A stretch of DNA of 64,000 nucleotides from an uncultured virus (IMG/VR IMGVR_UViG_3300035208_003515) (IMGVR_UViG_3300035208_003515); one strand, 5' to 3'. Shown: positions 11,858-64,000, counted from the first letter of the stretch. Translations and numbers: made by a program. Notes: generated by a model from the sequence alone, not told the origin.

Positions 11858-13465
11858 CTATTGTAAAGATATTTCCGTTGACTGTAGTAAAGATTTTGGA
11901 GTTAAAGTTTCTTTCTGTAATATGCTTATATCCAGTGCAGTAGAGGTATATTGCTTTAATAAATCCGATCCCTTTACAGGATAGTCAGAGTACATACGCT
12001 TAACTTCGTTCAAAACCACCGCCCGTTCCGACATTTCAAGTTCACCCAGTTTATCCAATTTGTGATTTTTTAGAGCATTGCCGATTGTAACCGGCGCTAA
12101 CCTGGTCATTGTATAATCTGCGGCCTCTGGATTTGCTTCGATTTGGGATTTTAGCCAGTCGTAGGTTAAAGCGAAAGCGCCTTTGCCTTCTTTGCCTTGA
12201 ATACAACCTATGCCTGAGCTTACTATAAAGGCCGGTGCTGTCATATTTAATCGCCAATCCCCCATTTTATCTGAGGTTTGGACAGGGATTTCACGGGAAA
12301 ACTTCAATCCGTCCACTTCGATTGATAAAAGGGCATCTTCAGCGTGGTTGGAGATTACAAAATTAGCGACCTGTAGTTTAGTTTGATCTTGTACCCAGCA
12401 GTACCAGGGGAGATTGTAGAGCTTGCCCTCTTTGGTATCATCCCCATTGCCGAAGGTTTCAATGAGTTTACCGGTGAGGCCGACTAAAATGCGTTTGATT
12501 ACCTCCCGCTCAAATCCCTTCAAATATTGCTTCCACTCAAAAAGCCTTTCAACGTGCTCACGCAGCGGGTAGACTAAATCCCCATCAGGTTTCCAGTACC
12601 AGGCATCGGTAATCTTGAAGCGACCTTCGCCGTTATCGTAAAGTTCCCGAATGTGAGCGTTGGTCAGGTAATCAGGGCGTTCGCCTACGGGTGTGTAGTC
12701 TATGGTTTGGCTTTCACTGTCTTTATGGGTATAGATGACTGAGTTGAAGTTTCTTTCAACATCTACTACCCCTCTACAGAAGCCATAAGGTACTTTGGAA
12801 GGGGAGTAGAATTTATCACTCTTAAACCACGTCCCATATCGGGTGTCTATTAAATTCGCTGTGTGGTAGGAGAAGGCAGAGTTTACATCATAATCGTAGG
12901 TCTCGAAGTGCCCTCGTTGATGCGCCTCCATCCAACCACCATGTAGACATTTATGAGCATAGTATTGTGCTTCTGGAGGAATATCAATAGGTTTCGGAAG
13001 GTCTAAAGTAGTTAAAATCTCTTTCTGGTAGGCCGCTATGGGGCTTGACAGTGTAGCCGGATGAAGCTCAAGGCGTGATAGCACATCATAAACCCGTTGT
13101 CCTATCTCTTGGGCTTTACGGGCAGCATCCATAGAGTCAACTTCAAAGGGAAGTGAGGGATCGTATTGTGAAATATCCGAAAACTCCGCTGATTTTCCGA
13201 GTTTTATTGACAAGTAGCGGTGTCTCACGAAAAATATTGTGTAGTTATTGACAAACAACGATCCCGACTTCCAAAACTTCTGTAACTGATCTTCTGGGAC
13301 TTTCAACAGAAAACATAGGCGTGCCATTGCCCAATCCAGGTTGTAGAAAACTCTCAAAGTTTCAGGGCGGTCTTTAAGTAAAAATTCCAGATAATCTTGA
13401 TCTTCAAATGTGCCATCAGAGCAGGTCAAGATTTGACCTTGCAGGTGGAATCCGAGCACTCGCAT
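11858..13465 (-). CDS. Divergent family B DNA polymerase
   Basis: Motif A YDYDVNSAF, motif B-like KRILVGLTGK, motif C-like SIEVDG, upstream GGWME; exonuclease acidic residues not evident. Confidence 0.75.
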   Translation of the reverse strand: MRVLGFHLQGQILTCSDGTFEDQDYLEFLLKDRPETLRVFYNLDWAMARLCFLLKVPEDQLQKFWKSGSLFVNNYTIFFVRHRYLSIKLGKSAEFSDISQYDPSLPFEVDSMDAARKAQEIGQRVYDVLSRLELHPATLSSPIAAYQKEILTTLDLPKPIDIPPEAQYYAHKCLHGGWMEAHQRGHFETYDYDVNSAFSYHTANLIDTRYGTWFKSDKFYSPSKVPYGFCRGVVDVERNFNSVIYTHKDSESQTIDYTPVGERPDYLTNAHIRELYDNGEGRFKITDAWYWKPDGDLVYPLREHVERLFEWKQYLKGFEREVIKRILVGLTGKLIETFGNGDDTKEGKLYNLPWYCWVQDQTKLQVANFVISNHAEDALLSIEVDGLKFSREIPVQTSDKMGDWRLNMTAPAFIVSSGIGCIQGKEGKGAFALTYDWLKSQIEANPEAADYTMTRLAPVTIGNALKNHKLDKLGELEMSERAVVLNEVKRMYSDYPVKGSDLLKQYTSTALDISILQKETLTPKSLLQSTEISLQ

Positions 13466-13486
13466 CCGTGCCTCCTTATTTTCTGT

Positions 13487-14629
13487 TTAATTTGGCGTGA
13501 TAAGCAGTTTATAGCAAGGCAACAAGTTATTAGCGACAACCATTTTCTCGCTATTCATAATAATCCTGAAGTGTGCTATCCAGTAATCTCTATGAGTCCC
13601 AGTCTTTGCATGGCATGACCTACATAGAGTGATAAGGTTCTGTGGGTCGCAGTTGCGTTTATTATAATCAATGTGGTGGACACATAACTTAAGCGTACTG
13701 CTACATGAGTAGCAACAGTTACCATCTCTGCTTTTAATAGACTTCTTTAGCCATCTGTTGAAATCAGGTGTATAGTATTGGGCATCCCTACCGCCTCGCC
13801 AACATGGATTATTTGCCCCTGATCTTTTTTCATGGAATCCAGGCTTCCTCCACATTTGTTTACTAGATTTGCTCAGTTTTAGTTTGGTATCAGCAGAAAC
13901 TATTCTGCCTTTACAAGCCTGTCCTACTTTAAGTTTATGTTCGGTAGAAAGTTTTCGGCCTGTAAGCGCTTGGCTAATTTTTTGTCTACTTTCAATAGTG
14001 CGATGGCTACCTTTGTTGTTTTCTTGCATCTCTATTAGCTTCTCTAAAGACTTTGCGGAAAGTGGTTTTCCTTTTTTGCCTAAGCTTATTTTGAGTCTAG
14101 CTTCGGCAGTATGGCATACCCCTTTCTTGGCTATACTTATCTGCATCCGTTTCTTTGGAGTTCTATTTGCCTCAGCTATTTTCGCTTTGTGTTCAGCAGA
14201 GAGTGACACACCTTTATGTGCTTGGCTCATTTTCAGTCTAAATTCAGGTGTTCTACGTAATGCCACGTGATTTGCTCTACGTTTAGCGGTAAAAGGTACT
14301 CCTTTATGGTTCTGACTGAGTTTCAATTTAGTTTCAGCAGTATGAGGATGCCCAGGCTTTCCTGTCTTTGATAGACTTATCTTTAGTTTAGTTTCAATGG
14401 AATGGTGTGTACCTCTCCTCGCTTCCTGTGCCTTTCTTAGTGCAGCCATTGAATTTTCAGAAGCTGGTTTACCTTTTTGGGCTTGGCTCATATGGAGTTT
14501 GGCTTCATCCGAAAGCGACTTACCTTTCTTTGCTAAACTTATCTTCAACTTAGTTTCAGCAGAACGTGGTATGCCAATCTTCGATTGGCTAATGTGTAAT
14601 CTGTGCTCAGCAGATAGTATTCTCTTCAA
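13487..14629 (-). CDS. Homing endonuclease with many NUMOD3 repeats and C-terminal HNH
   Basis: Repeated (H/R)(S/T)xETKLK(I/L)S units; RDGNCCYSC...VHHIDYNKRNCDPQNLITLCRSCH. Confidence 0.9.
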   Translation of the reverse strand: MKRILSAEHRLHISQSKIGIPRSAETKLKISLAKKGKSLSDEAKLHMSQAQKGKPASENSMAALRKAQEARRGTHHSIETKLKISLSKTGKPGHPHTAETKLKLSQNHKGVPFTAKRRANHVALRRTPEFRLKMSQAHKGVSLSAEHKAKIAEANRTPKKRMQISIAKKGVCHTAEARLKISLGKKGKPLSAKSLEKLIEMQENNKGSHRTIESRQKISQALTGRKLSTEHKLKVGQACKGRIVSADTKLKLSKSSKQMWRKPGFHEKRSGANNPCWRGGRDAQYYTPDFNRWLKKSIKSRDGNCCYSCSSTLKLCVHHIDYNKRNCDPQNLITLCRSCHAKTGTHRDYWIAHFRIIMNSEKMVVANNLLPCYKLLITPN

Positions 14630-34000: not shown

Positions 34001-35236
34001 ACAAGAACCATTAAGTATAAAGCGATTGATCCTAAAACTGGAGAAAGCCTTACTGTAGCTAAAGAAGTGCCAGTCGAAAGAAAACCAGAGGTGGCTGTAA
34101 AAGAAAGGATAGATGTGGATACAATACTTGAAGATATACAAAAAGAAAAACTGACACCTGAAGAAAAGGCAAAATTAAAGGAATTAATTAAAGAAAAAGA
34201 AATACCAAAAGATGAAGCAAAGCAACTACGTAAATTGGCTGAAAAGATAGCTAAAGGTGAAACTGAGTTCACAGAAGAAGAATTACAGTTACAAGCCAAT
34301 TTTAGTAAGGAATTAGAAGAGATATTATCTTCGATTAGATTTATTAAACCTAAAGGTGCAGCTATTTTAGAAGCAAAAGAGATAAAGCCTACGACCCCTA
34401 AAGAATTCAAAGTAGGGAAAACTAAACCAGTAGAGGTTGCAACAAGTACAATAGTTACCGAACCTTCAATATCTCCGGCAACTCGTGCTTCTTATCTTGC
34501 AGTAGCAAAACCATCTCCTATCCCGTTTGAATATGCCACGCCTGCACCTGCACCTGCACCTGCACCTGCACCTGCACCTGCGCCAGCACCTGCGCCTGCA
34601 CCTGCACCTGCGCCAGCACCTGCGCCAGCACCTGCACCTGCACCAGCACCTGCGCCAGCACCTGCACCTGCACCAGCACCTGCGCCAGCACCTGCACCTG
34701 CACCAGCACCAGCACCTGCACCTGCGCCAGCACCTGCACCTGCACCTGCACCTGCGCCAGCACCTGCACCTGCGCCAGCACCTGCACCTGCGCCATTCCA
34801 AATGATTACTCTTAAAATACCCCCTCTTGAAAAACCGCCTACGAAGACACCCCCAATTATAATAATAAAAACACCAAAGGGTGATAAAGAATTAACCCAA
34901 GAACAAAGGGATAGCGCAATTGCATGGAAGCAAGGATTTATATATATCATGCTCTATGCTCCGTGGGGTCAGGGAGATGTTATATATTCACGCAAGCCAT
35001 TACCAGGAGTAAAATACTATAAGGGCGTAGGATCAGCAGCAGCATCAATTATTTCCAAGTATGGAGATATCCCCGTCCATATAAAAAGAGACATGGGTAT
35101 AGTCGATATCAATATATACAGAACAGCCAATAAACGTAAACCAAAGATACAATTTAAGCCGGACAGTAAACAAAAGACCAAATACTCAGGTGTAGTCACA
35201 AGTCAAATAAATACATCAAAAGGCGGTGAATTATGA
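31025..35236 (+). CDS. 1403-aa protein with internal repeats, central hydrophobic segments and a (PA)42 tract
   Basis: Repeated N(V/I)xLxxGEW unit; hydrophobic stretch near the middle; Pro-Ala repeat; basic C-terminal domain. Confidence 0.75.
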   Translation: MSDILKSAKSDVTVDVAQLERRRQELSRPDTYQEPVRDTGAIQRSEQFKEDNVQLKNGEWINKSVYEKLSKEEQDILMERGVSGYNAYLVDQADKQAKEAYEKALAEYNKEKAKFESENIKLSTGEWVTKENYNSLPSYLQPELDKRGVSGFNTLLNNPTELNQIHQTYLNTVKQAEIKNVRLQIQEAQNQVNQWQVIVNRNPNDLRAQRTLADAIVQRDNLQSQLNYMLEPPNPKTLPKVTDKTSTTPTTPVLIPKVVLPLNATLAEKIAYNMALEGYGTGETVKKEGYSGEKVLAQQQAQAIQLAQIQAGISPTIFAEGSATKSISQVPGTEYVQLDNGLLIAKEALEQLPEGVREAIKEQVEGKETFVLTKDTGDKQFISQSDLAKLTEKEQLVLLGKDITEIAAETRPGVISETLYDDKGNLLSEMSLTSVVQSLRAQGYSDMQIAQYIAKQKGETVPKPTVFDSDEKWSIYLANQGLDNKPSSIAVARLSEVLVHATPLTTLDSIPSEAQSWLRDTLGLSLPSPAELREYQEIQKLNPNWNKVGNVDVSPDVMSAMAKAEYQAKDMLLLLGIETTPPPDIKVQGESSPEYARWAALQGIKAVAVALSFGGSAAGNVALNSTGRILMPLAFGADTAVNWDKMDTTGKAVSSAFVGLMALGAVGPIKEIVKGMAGNRISLPKTGMLRPEYQNTGTKIVAAMDNVRSKTIENVKAVAGDELAVKFESASDDLVKAIETKNEVQIKQAGNELKQVVKDIKAVDTTNSMSTADYMTEVDRIANKAASKPLEAVQEVQSTTNEVIKEIPKAYDILDDAGKVADETWNKPVVSRIDELMQQDKYYNPRVSVFEDGNIPRKGNPNTALNSLGSDVESYVRYTLADSGISMAEISKLEINFIKEEGFGGKIIKVEISPIGLEEDKIATLVAQRGVRIDPYDERIWIELRQPEIEPKGYAPSLEENLPPPESLERPEWQGKGGGATSGKPPEPTTVETRTIKYKAIDPKTGESLTVAKEVPVERKPEVAVKERIDVDTILEDIQKEKLTPEEKAKLKELIKEKEIPKDEAKQLRKLAEKIAKGETEFTEEELQLQANFSKELEEILSSIRFIKPKGAAILEAKEIKPTTPKEFKVGKTKPVEVATSTIVTEPSISPATRASYLAVAKPSPIPFEYATPAPAPAPAPAPAPAPAPAPAPAPAPAPAPAPAPAPAPAPAPAPAPAPAPAPAPAPAPAPAPAPAPAPAPAPAPAPAPAPAPAPAPFQMITLKIPPLEKPPTKTPPIIIIKTPKGDKELTQEQRDSAIAWKQGFIYIMLYAPWGQGDVIYSRKPLPGVKYYKGVGSAAASIISKYGDIPVHIKRDMGIVDINIYRTANKRKPKIQFKPDSKQKTKYSGVVTSQINTSKGGEL
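34541..34795 (+). repeat. Coding tandem repeat CC(T/A)GC(A/G), 85 codons = (Pro-Ala)42-Pro
   Basis: Directly visible 6-bp repeat with synonymous variation. Confidence 0.95.
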
Positions 35237-52763: not shown

Positions 52764-53920
52764 GAGTTTTATTCATCGATCCCCTCAACACACAGAATAA
52801 CTTTTATATATACGCTAAATACCTTCGTCAGTATGGCATGGATGCTGAAGTGGTCATGGGGAAGTCAATCGTCCCTCAAGATTCACTACCCAACTGGCAT
52901 GACAGTGAAACTTACGACTGGATACATTATTTTGATTTGCCCTACTTCGTGCCTTTTAAGAATCCGGTCAAGTATTTAATTCAGACTAAGAGACTGATTG
53001 ATTTTGCTCGACAGTTTGACCTTATAGTATGCTCAGGGCTTGCCCCTATATGGATGAGGTGGACAGGTAAACCGTTTATTTTCTTTTCTTATGGGGCTGA
53101 CTTAGACCAGGTTGCCTTAAAAGGATGGTCAGGGATACCCACACAGAAAGTTACTCCGTTTCAGCGAATTATCTATTTCATTCTAAAACATCATTTAGTC
53201 GGATCGCTACGGAAGGCAAAGGCTACGGTGCTTGCGCCACACCAAATACCCACGGCTGAAAAGGTGGGATTAAAGAACCTTGTATTCTTACCTCATATCA
53301 TAGATATAGATACCTTCAAACCTTTAGAGAATGGGGAATGGTTAAGGGATGAATTAAAGTGTGATTTTATCGTCTTTCATCCACCACGGCAGGCATGGCT
53401 TGACCGGACAGTAACCGACTGCAAGGGTAATGACAAAGTATTCAGGGCATTCCGCAGGTTCACCCAAATCTATAAAGGCAAAGCGAAGTTAATCGTCATA
53501 GAAAAAGGATGGGACTTGGAAGATAGCAAGCGGCTTGTTAGGCAATTAGGAATAGCGGATAGTGTTTACTGGTTAGATTCTGTCCCTAAGAAAGAGATGT
53601 GCAGGTTATACAATGCTTCTGATGTGGTATTAGATCAGTTTGTAGTTGGGGTTTTAGCTCTGGTAGCCATTGAAGCGATGGCTTGTGGTACTCCGGCTAT
53701 GACCTACGTATCTCAGGCTACAGAAGATAATCTCTATCCCGTAATGCCACCAATAATTAACGTCCATTCAGAAGATGAAATATTACATAACCTGTGTGTA
53801 CTGGCAAGGGATAGTGAATTAAGGAATAGTCTCGGTAAGCAGGGTAGGAAGTGGATAGAGATGTATTGCAGTCCTGAAAAGGCAGTACCAAAGCATATAG
53901 AGTTCTTGCATAACTATTGA
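52760..53920 (+). CDS. GT4 (GT-B) glycosyltransferase
   Basis: EAMACGTP; YNASDVVLDQF. Confidence 0.85.
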   Translation: MRVLFIDPLNTQNNFYIYAKYLRQYGMDAEVVMGKSIVPQDSLPNWHDSETYDWIHYFDLPYFVPFKNPVKYLIQTKRLIDFARQFDLIVCSGLAPIWMRWTGKPFIFFSYGADLDQVALKGWSGIPTQKVTPFQRIIYFILKHHLVGSLRKAKATVLAPHQIPTAEKVGLKNLVFLPHIIDIDTFKPLENGEWLRDELKCDFIVFHPPRQAWLDRTVTDCKGNDKVFRAFRRFTQIYKGKAKLIVIEKGWDLEDSKRLVRQLGIADSVYWLDSVPKKEMCRLYNASDVVLDQFVVGVLALVAIEAMACGTPAMTYVSQATEDNLYPVMPPIINVHSEDEILHNLCVLARDSELRNSLGKQGRKWIEMYCSPEKAVPKHIEFLHNY

Positions 53921-59656: not shown

Positions 59657-61462
59657 GCGATATTAAGCAGAAGCGCAAACGAAAGCGAATATTCATTATA
59701 GTTGGGTTGGCTCTATTTGCATGTGGGGCAGCAGTTGGTGGATATTTCTATTATCAGCACCAACAAGAGAACAAAATACCTGAAATTCCTCTAAGTGAAG
59801 CTGTGCTGTTATCTAAGGCGCATGTATTTAGTGATATGAAGATAGGCGATAGTCAGATTACTTTAACAGTGGCATCAGGATTTACTGATTGGGATTCAAT
59901 AGCTACCGTAGATACTGATAAAAAGTCTGTCAATTTAAATACAAATAGTAAGGTTACTGTTGATGTAGGTAGTCTATCGTTAAATGACTTGCAGGATATA
60001 GGCTTTGTTGCACCGAAATCATATACTCACAACAGCCAATCAGAAGGTTTTAATTGGGGTTCACTTCCTGGTATTGTATTACCACTATTGTTTCTTGGTT
60101 GGTGGGTTTATATGGCTGTTGTTCTTCTCTGACATAATAGCAGGTGGATTTAATAAGTATAAGAAGGATAAAACATCCATATTGTTCTCTGATATTGGTG
60201 GATTGTTAGATGCCAAAGAAAAACTGTTAGAGGCTTCACGGTTTATAACAGACAAGTCTTATTTCCTTAACGTAGGGGCAAAAGTCCCACGTGGAATATT
60301 ATTAACCGGTGCGCCAGGAGTAGGTAAGACTATGCTTGCACGGGCAATGGCTACTGAGGCGGGTATAGGATTCTATTATGCTTCAGGAACAGAGTTTCAT
60401 AGCTATTTTGTGGCGATGGCATCAAGGCGTGTCAAAAAGCTATTCAGATTGGCAAAACAGCATCCAAGTATTGTGTTTATTGACGAGTTTGATTCGATAG
60501 GTATGGCTCGTAGTTTCAGAGGAACGGATATGTCTACTGATAACGAACATACTCTTAATCAGCTACTTGCTGAAATGGATGGGTTTAAAAAAGATACTCA
60601 GGTTATCGTTATTGCAGCTACTAACCATCCCGAAGTGCTTGACCCTGCATTGTTAAGGCCAGGTAGATTCGATAGGCAGATAACCATATCGTTACCTACA
60701 CTTGCTGAAAGAAGTGAGATAATCAAGATACATCAGAAGGGCAAACCTATAGCAGACGATGTTGATATAGATGTTATAGCAAGGCAAACAGGCGGTTTAA
60801 GTGGTGCTGATTTGGCAGGAATGATGAATGAGGCAGCGTTGATAGCTGGACGACAGTGTAAAGATAAGATCAATATGGTTGATATCTCCAATGCCATAGA
60901 CAATGTTACTGCTGGGAGTGAGCGTAAAGCACTTGTATTGACTGATGTTGATAAAAAGGTACTTGCTTATCATGAATCAGGCCATGCGCTTGTAGCCTCA
61001 ATGTTCCCTGAGTGCGGGAAGGTACAGCGGATATCTATTTTGCCTCACGGAATGGCAGGTGGATTCACACGATTATCAGAAGATAAAGAGAAGTTGGTAA
61101 TCACAAAGAAAATAGCAATGGAGAATATTTCAATATTGTTTGCCGGACGTGTTGCAGAGGAAGCAGTTACAGGTGATCTAAGTAGTGGCGCACAAAACGA
61201 CATAATGAAAGCCAACCAAATAGCTACTGAAATGGTCGCTCATTATGGGATGGGAGCAAAGTTCGGACTGAGATATTATGATACATCGAGCAAAGAAGCT
61301 AATCCTATTATTAATGAAGATATAAAAAGCATCTTGGATGATTGCTACGTGACAGCAAAACAGGTTATCGAAGGCAACCAGGACAAGTTAAATAAGCTGG
61401 CAAGCAAACTCATTGAAGTGGAAGCCTTAAATGCTGATGAAGTAGAGGATTTGTTGAAATGA
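59653..61462 (+). CDS. ftsH: FtsH AAA+ zinc metalloprotease split by a +1 frameshift near 60091
   Basis: N-terminal TM/extracellular ORF 59653-60132; second frame has GAPGVGKT, FIDEFD, LLRPGRFDR, HESGH. Confidence 0.88.
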
Positions 61463-62226
61463 CCTTAAAAGAACGTACTGCTGCAAGTTTTGGCTTTGAA
61501 TGGGCAAAGTTCAATGATATATTTGCTGAATATGAAGCCAATTTCCTCAGTTATATCGCTCCCATAGATAAAGACTTTTTCAAAGGTAAATTAGTCTTAG
61601 ATGCTGGATGTGGCGCTGGTAGACACTCGTACTTTGCAGCCAAATATGGGGCAAGTGTTGTAGCAATTGATCTCAGTGAAAAGTCAGTTCAGTCAGCCAG
61701 AGATAATCTAAGTGATATGGATGCTCATGTTATACAGAGTGATATCTGCACTTTTGAACACCACAGGAAATTTGACTACATCTTTTCAATAGGAGTGCTT
61801 CATCACCTTCCCGATCCGCAGGCCGGATTTAATCATTTAGTCACACTTTTAAAAGAAGGTGGCACTATATCAATATGGGTTTACAGTAAAGAGGACAATT
61901 GGCTGGCAATTAATTTCTATGAGCCTATAAGGAAGATCACAACCAGGTTGCCACATAAACTACTCTACTATTTATCTTATATTCCTGCTTTAATAGTGGA
62001 GATATGTAATAGGTTGAAGCTTCCAATCTTCAGTTATTACATCAAGTTCCCTTTTAAGACGAAATTGAATGATGCCTTTGATGTGTTTTCAGCACCGTCA
62101 GCAAGGTATTATTCGCTTGGGGATATTTACGATTGGCTTTTACAGGCTGGCTTGCGGGATTGCCACCCCCATTATCGTGTATTAGATGGAGTAATTAAAG
62201 GAATCATAGGGATGGGTAGAAAGTAA
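61459..62226 (+). CDS. Class I SAM-dependent methyltransferase
   Basis: LDAGCGAGRH; SIGVLHH. Confidence 0.9.
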   Translation: MTLKERTAASFGFEWAKFNDIFAEYEANFLSYIAPIDKDFFKGKLVLDAGCGAGRHSYFAAKYGASVVAIDLSEKSVQSARDNLSDMDAHVIQSDICTFEHHRKFDYIFSIGVLHHLPDPQAGFNHLVTLLKEGGTISIWVYSKEDNWLAINFYEPIRKITTRLPHKLLYYLSYIPALIVEICNRLKLPIFSYYIKFPFKTKLNDAFDVFSAPSARYYSLGDIYDWLLQAGLRDCHPHYRVLDGVIKGIIGMGRK

Positions 62227-62264
62227 CTAAAACCTTTGCCGTAGTAAACAAAATTTATCACTAA

Positions 62265-62299
62265 AACTATTGACAGTGACATATAACACATGGTATGCT
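62265..62299 (+). promoter_or_regulatory. Promoter of the tRNA operon
   Basis: AACTA-TTGACA-18-TATGCT with extended -10 TG. Confidence 0.75.
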
Positions 62300-62308
62300 A
62301 CTAAAACA

Positions 62309-62449
62309 ATGCTCAAGCAAATAGGTACACAAACATCAACAAGTGAACGCCTTACTAAAACGGCGGTTAGATTTGCATTGCCATCTTATTTACACAATAT
62401 TGATATATCACAGGATTGGCAATCGAATTTGAGGGTTTGTAAAGTCTAA
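62309..62449 (+). CDS. Putative attenuator leader peptide (46 aa)
   Basis: ATG a few nt after predicted TSS; MLKQIGTQTSTSERLTKTAVRFALPSYLHNIDISQDWQSNLRVCKV*; 3' end overlaps antiterminator strand. Confidence 0.6.
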   Translation: MLKQIGTQTSTSERLTKTAVRFALPSYLHNIDISQDWQSNLRVCKV

Positions 62450-62479
62450 GTACAAAGACTAAGTAATAAGGATAACATG

Positions 62480-62511
62480 AACCCTCAAGGATAAAACCAA
62501 GAGGGTTTTTT
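62480..62511 (+). terminator. Conditional terminator upstream of the tRNA array
   Basis: AACCCTC-AAGG-ATAAAA-CCAA-GAGGGTT-TTTT; 5' arm can alternatively pair with TTGAGGGTT at 62429-62437. Confidence 0.75.
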
Positions 62512-62536
62512 AGTGGACTTTAATAATTGAATATGT

Positions 62537-62610
62537 GGCTGTGTCAGCTAATGGCAGGCTAGAAGTTTTTCACACTTCCAATCAGAGTTCGATCCTCTGT
62601 ACAGCCACCA
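62537..62610 (+). tRNA. tRNA-Glu(TTC)
   Basis: Cloverleaf; anticodon arm GAAGT-TTTTCAC-ACTTC; CCA. Confidence 0.85.
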
Positions 62611-62611
62611 C

Positions 62612-62686
62612 GGTCTATTGGTGTAGCGGTTTGCATGTTTGCTTGTCAAGCAATTGGTGATGGTTCAACTCCCTCATAGACCGCCA
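62612..62686 (+). tRNA. tRNA-Asp(GTC)
   Basis: Loop TTGTCAA; GCCA end. Confidence 0.85.
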
Positions 62687-62711
62687 AAGAACTTTAATAA
62701 TTTTATATTGT

Positions 62712-62801
62712 GGAGAGTTGGCAGAATATGGTAATTGCGGCGGTTTGCTAAACCGTTGACCCTAAAAAGTCACACTGGTTCAAATCCAGTACTCTCCGCC
62801 A
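62712..62801 (+). tRNA. tRNA-Ser(GCT)
   Basis: Loop TTGCTAA; long variable arm; GCCA. Confidence 0.9.
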
Positions 62802-62805
62802 ATGT

Positions 62806-62882
62806 GGTGGGAATAGTGTTAGTGATTAGCACGAGTGGTTGTGACCCACTTAGGACTGGTTTGAGTCCAGTTTCTCACCCCA
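62806..62882 (+). tRNA. tRNA-His(GTG)
   Basis: Loop TTGTGAC; G-1:C73; CCA. Confidence 0.88.
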
Positions 62883-62886
62883 AAAT

Positions 62887-62963
62887 GGGGCTGTAGCTCA
62901 ATTTGGGAGAGCGACTCGTTTGCACCGAGTAGGTTGGAGGTTCAATTCCTCTCAGTTCCACCA
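62887..62963 (+). tRNA. tRNA-Ala(TGC)
   Basis: G3:U70; loop TTTGCAC. Confidence 0.92.
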
Positions 62964-62964
62964 T

Positions 62965-63042
62965 GCCAGCGTAGCTCAGTCTGGTAGAGCGGTTGTTTTG
63001 TAAACAACGGGTCGCAGGTTCAAATCCATGCCGTTGGCTCCA
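62965..63042 (+). tRNA. tRNA-Thr(TGT)
   Basis: Loop TTTGTAA; CCA. Confidence 0.9.
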
Positions 63043-63098
63043 AAGTATTTTTGCGTTAGTAGCGTGAATATAGCACCTTAATATATGAATAGTTGTTT

Positions 63099-63175
63099 GC
63101 AAGAGTAGCTCAATTGGATAGAGTACGTGCTTGCCAAGTACGAGGTTGCGAGTTCGATGCTCGTCTCTTGCTCCA
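63099..63175 (+). tRNA. tRNA-Gly(GCC)
   Basis: Loop TTGCCAA; U73. Confidence 0.9.
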
Positions 63176-63176
63176 T

Positions 63177-63251
63177 TGAGGGTTCGTCTATAGGAAGGAC
63201 ACTGTGTGGCCGCACAGTAACGGTAGGTTCGAGTCCTATCACCCTCAGCCA
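63177..63251 (+). tRNA. tRNA-like gene, Gln-type body with aberrant anticodon loop
   Basis: Acceptor TGAGGGT/ACCCTCA-GCCA; normal T arm; anticodon stem CTGTG/CACAG closes a 6-nt loop TGGCCG. Confidence 0.7.
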
Positions 63252-63252
63252 T

Positions 63253-63327
63253 ACTTCGGTAGTTCAATGGTAGAACACCTCCCTGTTAAGGAGATAGTTG
63301 AAGGTTCGAGTCCTTCCTGAAGTGCCA
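63253..63327 (+). tRNA. tRNA-Asn(GTT)
   Basis: Loop CTGTTAA; GCCA. Confidence 0.9.
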
Positions 63328-63328
63328 T

Positions 63329-63404
63329 ACTCTCATCGTCTAGTGGTTCAGGATATCACCCTCTCACGGTGAGGACATCGGTTCAAATCCGATTGGGAGT
63401 ACCA
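63329..63404 (+). tRNA. tRNA-Glu(CTC)
   Basis: Loop CTCTCAC. Confidence 0.9.
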
Positions 63405-63417
63405 TATTTGTCTTCAT

Positions 63418-63492
63418 AGGTCAGTCGTTCAGCGGCTAGGACATTTGCCTCCAAAGCAAAATACGAGGGTTCGAGTCCTTCTTGACCTGCCA
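63418..63492 (+). tRNA. tRNA-Trp(CCA)
   Basis: Loop CTCCAAA; GCCA. Confidence 0.9.
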
Positions 63493-63498
63493 AAATAC

Positions 63499-63573
63499 GC
63501 AATCGTAACTCAATGGCAGAGTGCCTGCCTTTTAAGCAGTACGTTGTGGGTTCGACTCCCACCGATTGCACCA
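63499..63573 (+). tRNA. tRNA-Lys(TTT)
   Basis: Loop CTTTTAA. Confidence 0.9.
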
Positions 63574-63574
63574 A

Positions 63575-63650
63575 CGAAGCGAAGTTCAATTGGCAGAACA
63601 TCGGTCTCTTAAACCGAAAGGTATGGGTTCAACTCCCATCGCTTCGACCA
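63575..63650 (+). tRNA. tRNA-Lys(CTT)
   Basis: Loop CTCTTAA. Confidence 0.88.
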
Positions 63651-63651
63651 T

Positions 63652-63726
63652 CAGAGCGAAGTGTTTATGGCAGCACACGTGCCCTGGGAGCACGAAGAGA
63701 GTGTTCGAATCACTCCGCTTTGACCA
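63652..63726 (+). tRNA. tRNA-Pro(TGG)
   Basis: C1:G72, A73; loop CCTGGGA (C33). Confidence 0.85.
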
Positions 63727-63728
63727 AT

Positions 63729-63804
63729 GCCTCTTAAGTGTTTACGGATTACACATCTGCCCTCCAAGCAGAGGTAGAGGGTTCAAGTCCCTCAAGAGGC
63801 TCCA
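63729..63804 (+). tRNA. tRNA-Gly(TCC)
   Basis: Loop CCTCCAA (C33); U73. Confidence 0.85.
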
Positions 63805-63805
63805 A

Positions 63806-63882
63806 AGGCGAGTAGCCCAATTGGCCGTGGCAACCGGCTTAGAACCGGAAATATGCGAGTTCGAATCTCGCCTCGCCTACCA
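63806..63882 (+). tRNA. tRNA-Leu(TAG) with short variable loop
   Basis: Loop CTTAGAA; variable region only AATAT; A73. Confidence 0.75.
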
Positions 63883-63883
63883 T

Positions 63884-63958
63884 ACAGTCGTGGCTTGATA
63901 GGGAAGCAACTCTTTTACACGGAGTGATATGCAGGTTCGAATCCTGCCGACTGTACCA
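63884..63958 (+). tRNA. tRNA-Val(TAC)
   Basis: Loop TTTACAC; ACCA. Confidence 0.88.
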
Positions 63959-63982
63959 AAAGTATATAAACCATTGTGTTGT

Positions 63983-64000
63983 GCTTGGGTAGCTCAGTCT
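63983..64000 (+). tRNA. 5' part of a further tRNA, cut by the window edge
   Basis: GCTTGGG-TAGCTCAGTCT acceptor/D-arm start. Confidence 0.6.

Follow-up and report, generated by a model that had tools for sequence, protein, structure and literature searches.

How is a long array of tRNA genes in a phage genome switched on, and by what signal? To our knowledge the timing and dosing of phage tRNA genes are largely unknown. The question is raised by a 64,000-nucleotide (nt) stretch of DNA from an uncultured virus (IMG/VR IMGVR_UViG_3300035208_003515), from here on called the window, in which 310 nt (62227-62536) separate a methyltransferase gene from tRNA-Glu, the first of an array of 17 tRNA genes. 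These 310 nt contain a promoter, a 46-codon open reading frame (ORF) and a terminator-like hairpin, and the last codons of the frame are complementary to the 5' arm of that hairpin. We read the stretch, with a confidence that stops a little short of even, as the transcriptional leader of the tRNA array and most likely as a ribosome-mediated attenuator.

In the proposed mechanism the sigma-70-type promoter would start an RNA of about 205 nt ending at an intrinsic terminator 25 nt before tRNA-Glu. This RNA would have two exclusive folds, the terminator or a 13-base-pair (bp) antiterminator that uses the terminator 5' arm. With no ribosome on the RNA, two upstream pairings would hold the antiterminator 5' strand, so that the terminator forms and transcription stops. 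A ribosome reaching the last ten codons of the frame or its stop codon would cover the same strand, and transcription would stop too. A ribosome delayed earlier would break the upstream pairings and leave the strand free; the antiterminator would form and RNA polymerase would enter the tRNA genes. As all 20 amino acids occur in the frame and none of them in a run, the switch could be opened by many sorts of slow decoding.

In recent work phage tRNAs reportedly stand in for host tRNAs that defence nucleases have destroyed. If the mechanism is true, a leader that reads translation and opens the array when needed would bring a feedback loop into this picture, and tRNA supply would join amino-acid supply as a target of ribosome-mediated attenuation. 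At about 300 nt the element is compact and self-contained, and it can therefore be tested directly in vitro.

Two predicted exclusive folds in front of the tRNA array

The 9 nt TTGAGGGTT (62429-62437) in the frame are the exact reverse complement of AACCCTCAA (62480-62488) in the terminator 5' arm, and when G-U pairs are counted the helix extends to the 13 bp of the antiterminator (Table 1). A perfect 9-nt complement was found in 5 of 5000 shuffles. The duplex between the upstream leader and the terminator 5' arm has an energy of -16.5 kcal/mol, and 8 of 2000 dinucleotide shuffles and 26 of 5000 pieces of 165 nt cut from the window itself come as low. In 199 of 200 shuffles the whole leader folded less well (z = -2.27). 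Its terminator fold (-44.1 kcal/mol) and its antiterminator fold (-42.1 kcal/mol) are nearly equal in energy and mutually exclusive.

The terminator was found by a scan for hairpins followed by a T-run, its T6 lying at 62506-62511; a simple terminator rule misses the hairpin (62479-62508) because the stem is interrupted. In the predicted ribosome-free fold 62428-62432 and 62435-62440 are sequestered, the former by the 3' end of a 20-bp hairpin inside the frame and the latter by ACAAAC near its beginning, and together these pairings make up an anti-antiterminator. The 20-bp hairpin may also serve as a pause hairpin. The stop codon of the frame stands 7 nt past the antiterminator 5' strand, and a small hairpin across it lies inside the antiterminator loop. 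In 62227-62536 no family of Rfam 15, the T-box included, gave a match at E up to 1.

The promoter has 10 of 12 consensus positions, with TG one base before the -10 hexamer TATGCT, and scores highest among the 6 promoter-like sites of 61000-64000, a total that is itself at chance (5.7 expected). Since other genes in the window are preceded by strong promoters of the same type (e.g. at 53917, scoring 12/12), the phage plausibly uses host sigma-70. From the promoter geometry the start site is predicted at about 62306. Within the 25 nt between terminator and first tRNA there is no canonical promoter.

Most of these elements had been named in the original prediction, which was made from the sequence alone: a promoter before the frame, a 46-codon ORF with all 20 amino acids and 35 different codons, a U-tailed terminator (hairpin plus T6), the perfect 9-nt complement, and at least 17 tRNA genes downstream, of which ARAGORN finds 17 on the + strand. 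All of them are present. Its judgement that 35 codons are modestly above chance and that the structural switch is the stronger evidence also holds: P is 0.035 for at least 35 different codons in 46, against 8 of 2000 shuffles for the complementarity.

The 46-codon frame and a modelled ribosome

The frame, which the ORF listing places inside a 59-codon frame beginning with TTG (62270-62449), encodes 20 different amino acids without any single-residue run; the commonest residue, T, makes up 6 of the 46. From the composition of the window, 20 amino acids in 46 codons have P = 0.033; of 13144 stretches of 46 residues in real proteins 191 contain them all, as does 1 of 62 six-frame ATG ORFs of 40-52 codons. 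The amino-acid completeness of the frame is modestly unusual (P about 0.015-0.03). A boxA-like antitermination site near the start of the frame (TGCTC at 62310) was considered and judged too weak by eye.

The effect of a ribosome was modelled by masking a 28-nt footprint at each codon and calculating the equilibrium of terminator and antiterminator. In silico, the probability of the terminator is 0.86 with no ribosome and 1.0 with the P-site on codons 37-46. The antiterminator reaches 0.68-0.73 with the P-site on codons 3-6 and mostly 0.3-0.84 on codons 16-36, with only 0.14-0.18 at codons 20 and 30-32. Without any tuning, the model gives the three states by which the trp leader works.

Genomic setting and relatives

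The window is phage-like by gene content. It encodes a DnaB-type helicase and an exonuclease subunit of DNA polymerase, HNH, NUMOD3 and endonuclease VII proteins, a virion or tail-spike protein, an FtsH-like protease, and a long + strand block of glycosyltransferase, methyltransferase and radical-SAM (S-adenosylmethionine) genes. The products of this block comprise glycosyltransferases, SAM methyltransferases, radical-SAM/SPASM proteins, a DegT aminotransferase, a dehydratase, WbqC and an STT3/AglB-like oligosaccharyltransferase. The FtsH-like gene is missing from the syntenic glycosylation clusters of relatives such as contig L003. DNA near-identical to the window occurs in groundwater, landfill and aquatic sequencing runs; among the runs matching the window, no RNA sequencing run containing the stretch was found.

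Three further observations concern the window outside the leader. A tandem coding repeat with a 6-nt period (34541-34790) lies inside an ORF of 1403 residues, with GCACCTGC-type 8-mers up to 11 times per 150 nt. TTAACATT stands three times within 25 nt at 1353-1385, where two + strand ORFs close to the replication genes leave a gap, and may be an iteron or an operator. An ORF with a weak DNA-polymerase match (11858-14629, - strand) adjoins a NUMOD3/HNH homing endonuclease ORF, and the polymerase gene may have been split by the homing element.

Rfam scores 16 of the 17 tRNAs found by ARAGORN. At 63177-63251 ARAGORN places a tRNA whose type is unknown and whose anticodon has four bases (ggcc); the Rfam tRNA model gave it no score at E up to 1. 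In this odd tRNA the 5' acceptor strand, TTGAGGGTTC, is complementary to 62479-62488 in the terminator 5' arm, and TTGAGGGTT also matches this strand at 63176-63185.

Exact patterns from the terminator, the anticodon arm of tRNA-Glu and a spacer gave no match in IMG/VR, and a pattern from the odd tRNA gave none in GTDB genomes. For FtsH and DnaB no close relative was found in IMG/VR. GTDB genomes contain FtsH relatives at 16 loci (30-41% identical), the closest (38-41%) in metagenome-assembled genomes of Polyangiaceae; none of the 16 loci has a tRNA array, and one has a lone tRNA. The methyltransferase has relatives at one IMG/VR locus and 68 metagenome loci (57-79% identity) with glycosylation genes in common. 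The 10 closest of these loci hold no tRNA, and a blastn search of all 69 with the leader had a best E of 0.42. Because the methyltransferase relatives come without FtsH, leader or any tRNA, synteny ends at the methyltransferase stop codon.

In sequencing run X5 a contig of 1409 nt spans 61618-63023 with 117 differences and 10 gaps. All 10 indels and the 29 differences listed (of the 117) lie in 61655-62168, within the methyltransferase gene; the word share of this run, 0.42, is the share of 62227-64000, and 63096-64000 differs by 1 letter. The leader therefore appears to be near-identical in X5. Leader and array are probably a near-identical module that is joined in this run to a diverged neighbour, and the pattern suggests a mosaic junction near the 3' end of the methyltransferase gene.

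A comparable layout exists in a widespread family of uncultured phages in IMG/VR, found through two array heads and then expanded, 80 of 112 relatives being kept. In 79 loci a frame of 32-33 codons starts with AAAACAATG, like that of the window, and is without a clear Shine-Dalgarno sequence. Its 42 distinct peptides contain 20 amino acids in 4 cases, 19 in 26 and 18 in 12. As in the window, the antiterminator strand falls in the final third of the frame, and a strong terminator and then same-strand tRNA genes come after it. Such tRNAs, up to 14 in an array, are present in 77 of the 79 loci, the other two lacking room. Across the family, pairing amounts to 98.3% for the terminator and to 91.2% for the antiterminator, the latter compared with 50.5-65.8% for slid partners. 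The 33-codon family differs from the window leader in its shorter frame, in the distance from stop codon to array (175-667 nt, not 87 nt), in the tRNA that usually also precedes the element (70 of 79 loci) and in a peptide conserved at 70-100% identity. Its loci carry a TATAAATA promoter box, which we take to resemble the T4 late promoter. The layout is real and is conserved in at least one other lineage.

In Vibrio phage KVP40 (L075, reverse strand) a 37-codon ATG frame with 19 amino acids stands about 129 nt before a Pro-Pro-Arg tRNA block, upstream of a hairpin of -15.1 kcal/mol with a T-run that ends 76 nt before the tRNAs.

Table 1. Features of the leader, the tRNA array and their surroundings (coordinates of the window, except for the last row)
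Feature	Position	Strand	Remarks
Sigma-70-type promoter, extended -10	62270-62299	+	TTGACA 62270-62275, 18-nt spacer, TGgTATGCT ending 62299; consensus match
ACTAAAAC repeat 1	62226-62233	+	overlaps last base of methyltransferase stop codon; about 80 nt before predicted start site
ACTAAAAC repeat 2	62260-62267	+	ends 2 nt before -35 hexamer
ACTAAAAC repeat 3	62300-62307	+	directly after -10 hexamer, over predicted start site
ACTAAAAC repeat 4	62354-62361	+	inside frame, codons 16-18, within L15-T-K-T; about +49
46-codon ATG frame	62309-62449	+	peptide MLKQIGTQTSTSERLTKTAVRFALPSYLHNIDISQDWQSNLRVCKV*; TAA 62447-62449; start context AAAACAATG; no Shine-Dalgarno sequence
ACAAAC	62329-62334	+	pairs with GTTTGT 62435-62440 in ribosome-free fold; part of anti-antiterminator
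20-bp hairpin inside frame	62367-62432	+	62367-62387 with 62412-62432; 3' end holds 5 nt of antiterminator 5' strand
Antiterminator 5' strand	62428-62440	+	last codons of frame
Small 5-bp hairpin across stop codon	62443-62460	+	inside antiterminator loop
5-codon mini-frame MNPQG	62468-62494	+	ATG AAC CCT CAA GGA TAA; AAGGA 62468-62472, 4 nt, ATG 62477
Antiterminator 3' strand	62477-62489	+	overlaps terminator 5' arm
Terminator-like hairpin and T6	62479-62511	+	62479-62490 with 62497-62508; 10 pairs, internal loop, -12.9 kcal/mol
Spacer motif ACTTTAATAATTGAATAT, 18 nt	62517-62534	+	ends 2 nt before first tRNA (tRNA-Glu)
Further ACTTTAATAATTGAATAT-type copies	62691-62708, 63075-63092	+	each just before a tRNA (tRNA-Ser, tRNA-Gly)
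Array of 17 tRNA genes	62537-63958	+	ARAGORN; 18th begins at window end
20-kb glycosylation block	42106-62226	+	partly syntenic with metagenome contigs L003, L008, L010
FtsH-like AAA protease (Peptidase_M41 and AAA)	60005-61462		phrog_30773, E 6e-121
33-codon family members	L140 974-1072, L142 3547-3645, L229-L308	- (L140, L142)	alignment A4

Proposed attenuation, its rivals and known systems

Several findings weigh against the attenuator. As modelled, the switch at equilibrium is partial. An ATG ORF of at least 46 codons occurs in 257 of 5000 shuffles of the 310-nt region. The duplex of the start region with the anti-Shine-Dalgarno sequence has -2.8 kcal/mol, compared with -7 to -12 kcal/mol for many window genes, and a 5' leader of 2-4 nt, as predicted here, is poor for leaderless initiation in E. 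coli. The codon-usage score of the frame is 3.9, between that of genes (9.5 +/- 7.2) and that of spurious ORFs (-2.5 +/- 6.9). A word-index search found no homologue of the peptide; phmmer against 1.84 billion representatives gave one match, a 2503-residue repeat protein with 30% identity that is not a leader; PHROG gave no family, and the best match in Pfam had an E of 0.064, below the cut-off. The lack of a homologue or family for the peptide speaks against translation. Control could also run through the ACTAAAAC repeats at the promoter or through the spacer motif that recurs in the array.

Comparison with other genomes adds to these points. No leader-bearing relative was found in IMG/VR, JGI metagenomes or GTDB genomes, and contigs of the runs X2, X3 and X4 are identical to the leader over the parts covered, so that there is no divergence to compare. 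A neutral pattern for two adjacent tRNAs yielded 80 IMG/VR loci. Only arrays with at least 8 tRNAs were kept, 37 in all, and the removal of duplicates and of heads preceded by under 600 nt left 25 heads. At these heads, frames containing 19 or more amino acids show no enrichment (4 of 25, with 3 of 25 in the reverse complement, 3 of 21 in downstream controls and 5 of 125 in random ones). The layout of ORF plus terminator was found in 2 of the 25 heads, versus 0 of 25, 0 of 21 and 2 of 125 in the same controls, and both heads belong to the one 33-codon family. In KVP40, T5, Aeh1, phage G and GAP32, 1 of 10 tRNA blocks has a short frame and then a hairpin. The layout is no general property of phage tRNA arrays. 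Homology of the window leader to the 33-codon family, considered for the shared strings ATTGGCA, TTGAGGGT and AAACCAA, was rejected by nhmmer, which with two family profiles gave no match at 62.2-62.6 kb and a best E of 0.39 elsewhere. The family supports the case of the window by analogy only.

Three claims of the original prediction stand in part. A near-leaderless start fits the promoter geometry, with about 3 nt to the ATG from a start site that is itself predicted. Ribosome-mediated attenuation finds support in the exclusive folds and the modelled three-state logic, but not in the initiation region or in homologues of the peptide. That the leader samples the whole code is true of its 20 amino acids, but the rarity of this property is modest, as given above. 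A wider reading is more doubtful than the attenuator itself, and we offer it as a conjecture: unrelated phage lineages may independently have put an amino-acid-complete test frame and a terminator/antiterminator switch before their tRNA arrays, the window leader being one such, which would sense any slow decoding (starvation, codon mismatch with the host, host anticodon nucleases), perhaps on top of a ACTAAAAC operator.

Among the other explanations, the one that survives best, and which we still regard as unlikely, is that promoter and terminator delimit an independent gene for a small RNA of about 205 nt or for a 46-residue protein, unconnected with tRNA control. Its terminator would also end the upstream + strand operon, and no other terminator lies between the methyltransferase stop codon and 62479. 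A promoter and a terminator about 200 nt apart are the usual signature of a small-RNA gene, and the leader is strongly structured. The tRNAs would then come from leaky read-through or from the spacer motif ACTTTAATAATTGAATAT, which with its variants ends 2-6 nt before tRNA-Glu, tRNA-Ser and tRNA-Gly, contains AATAAT or TAATAT as possible -10 elements, and may be a -10-only promoter or a processing signal. However, the motif has no -35 partner, and elsewhere in the window it shows no enrichment upstream of genes (its 10-nt core has 4 exact copies, of which 2 belong to the array). An independent gene also leaves unexplained the antiterminator complementarity and the end of the frame right after the antiterminator strand, and neither a peptide family nor, as mentioned, an Rfam family was found for it.

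A second explanation, which we consider improbable as the whole account, follows from a feature that had not been mentioned before, the four ACTAAAAC repeats around the promoter. A DNA-binding regulator of phage or host would act at them as an operator, in the manner of the trn operon of Anabaena; the frame would be incidental and the terminator would set the baseline. The window holds 9 copies of ACTAAAAC, versus 3.05 expected in the 128 kb of both strands; 4 of the 9 fall, all on the + strand, within 136 nt (62226-62361), and ACTAAAAC is the only dispersed 8-mer of the window with 4 copies inside 150 nt. Repeat 3 over the predicted start site has the classic position of a repressor site. In Anabaena, transplanted repeats confer control by translational stress on a long tRNA array (PMC8421152). 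Against an operator, the spacings of ACTAAAAC are irregular (34, 40 and 54 nt), no candidate regulator was identified, and the statistics of the RNA switch are left unexplained. The Anabaena signature TGTWNWWNWNNWGTANYNWA, with up to 1 mismatch, has no match in 62200-62540, and its 4 matches elsewhere in the window compare with 5.5 expected. An operator is compatible with attenuation and does not exclude it: the repeats suggest a rival or an added control, and a bound protein may act instead of, or alongside, the RNA switch.

The switch might also be real and yet be set without translation of the 46-codon frame, by a bound protein, a small RNA, a tRNA, or ribosomes that block the hairpin at a 5-codon mini-frame (ATG 62477); we hold this to be very unlikely. 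The mini-frame, with its Shine-Dalgarno-like AAGGA, sits on the terminator 5' arm and overlaps 62479-62488; its initiation context is better than that of the long frame, both AAGGA and ATG are unpaired in the predicted fold, and TTGAGGGTT also matches the odd tRNA. On the other side, it is not unusual for a stretch of 30 nt to contain a Shine-Dalgarno sequence and an ATG, the Rfam search gave neither a T-box nor another family, and there are no relatives for checking. Sheer coincidence, an ordinary promoter and a leaky terminator with an accidental frame and complementarity between them, has the least to recommend it and is hardly credible: each property is moderately rare (ORF length 257/5000, 20 amino acids about 0.015-0.03, at least 35 codons 0.035) and was picked after the sequence had been read, but a complementarity of about 0.004, a stop codon just past the antiterminator strand, a fold z of -2.27 and a fitting footprint logic would all have to coincide.

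If the 310 nt are a ribosome-mediated attenuator, their nearest models are the leader-peptide transcription attenuators of amino-acid operons (trpL, hisL, thrL, leuL and pheL). Like these, the window has a short frame near the promoter, overlapping anti-antiterminator, antiterminator and terminator pairings, a stop codon placed so that a terminating ribosome would cover the antiterminator strand, and a terminator directly before the genes to be regulated. Of the features that mark trp- and his-type leaders, the short frame, the terminator, the exclusive antiterminator and the upstream holding pairing are found in silico, but the frame shows no clustered regulatory codons for one sensed amino acid. 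Unlike the amino-acid operons, the window would regulate tRNA genes rather than biosynthetic enzymes, and its frame contains all 20 amino acids and has no Shine-Dalgarno sequence. The antibiotic-responsive attenuators of resistance genes (erm, cat and ABC-F leaders) resemble the proposed switch in that a ribosome stalled within a short leader frame opens a terminator or start site further downstream; they differ in depending on a specific drug and peptide stall, in having a Shine-Dalgarno sequence and in controlling resistance proteins.

In the literature searched, ribosome-mediated attenuation or a like control of tRNA genes was not found. Attenuation itself and general sensors of stalling are known, among them the upstream ORF (uORF) attenuator of whiB7 in mycobacteria, in which a uORF and a terminator sense translational stalling in general and not that of a single amino acid (PMC10274678). 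The whiB7 uORF is enriched for alanine and controls a transcription factor (PMC10274678), whereas the window frame has no such enrichment, its output would be phage tRNA genes, and the two, both a uORF with a terminator, have no sequence relation.

The trn operon of Anabaena sp. PCC 7120 has two 9-nt direct repeats over the -10 box and the start site, and the study proposes a labile repressor; the strings 'leader', 'attenuat' and 'terminator' are absent from its main text (PMC8421152). Sequence and spacing of its repeats differ from those of ACTAAAAC in the window. In both cases one sigma-70-type promoter precedes a long array of extra tRNAs, and short direct repeats cover the start site and recur upstream of it; the Anabaena array is induced when translation is impaired.

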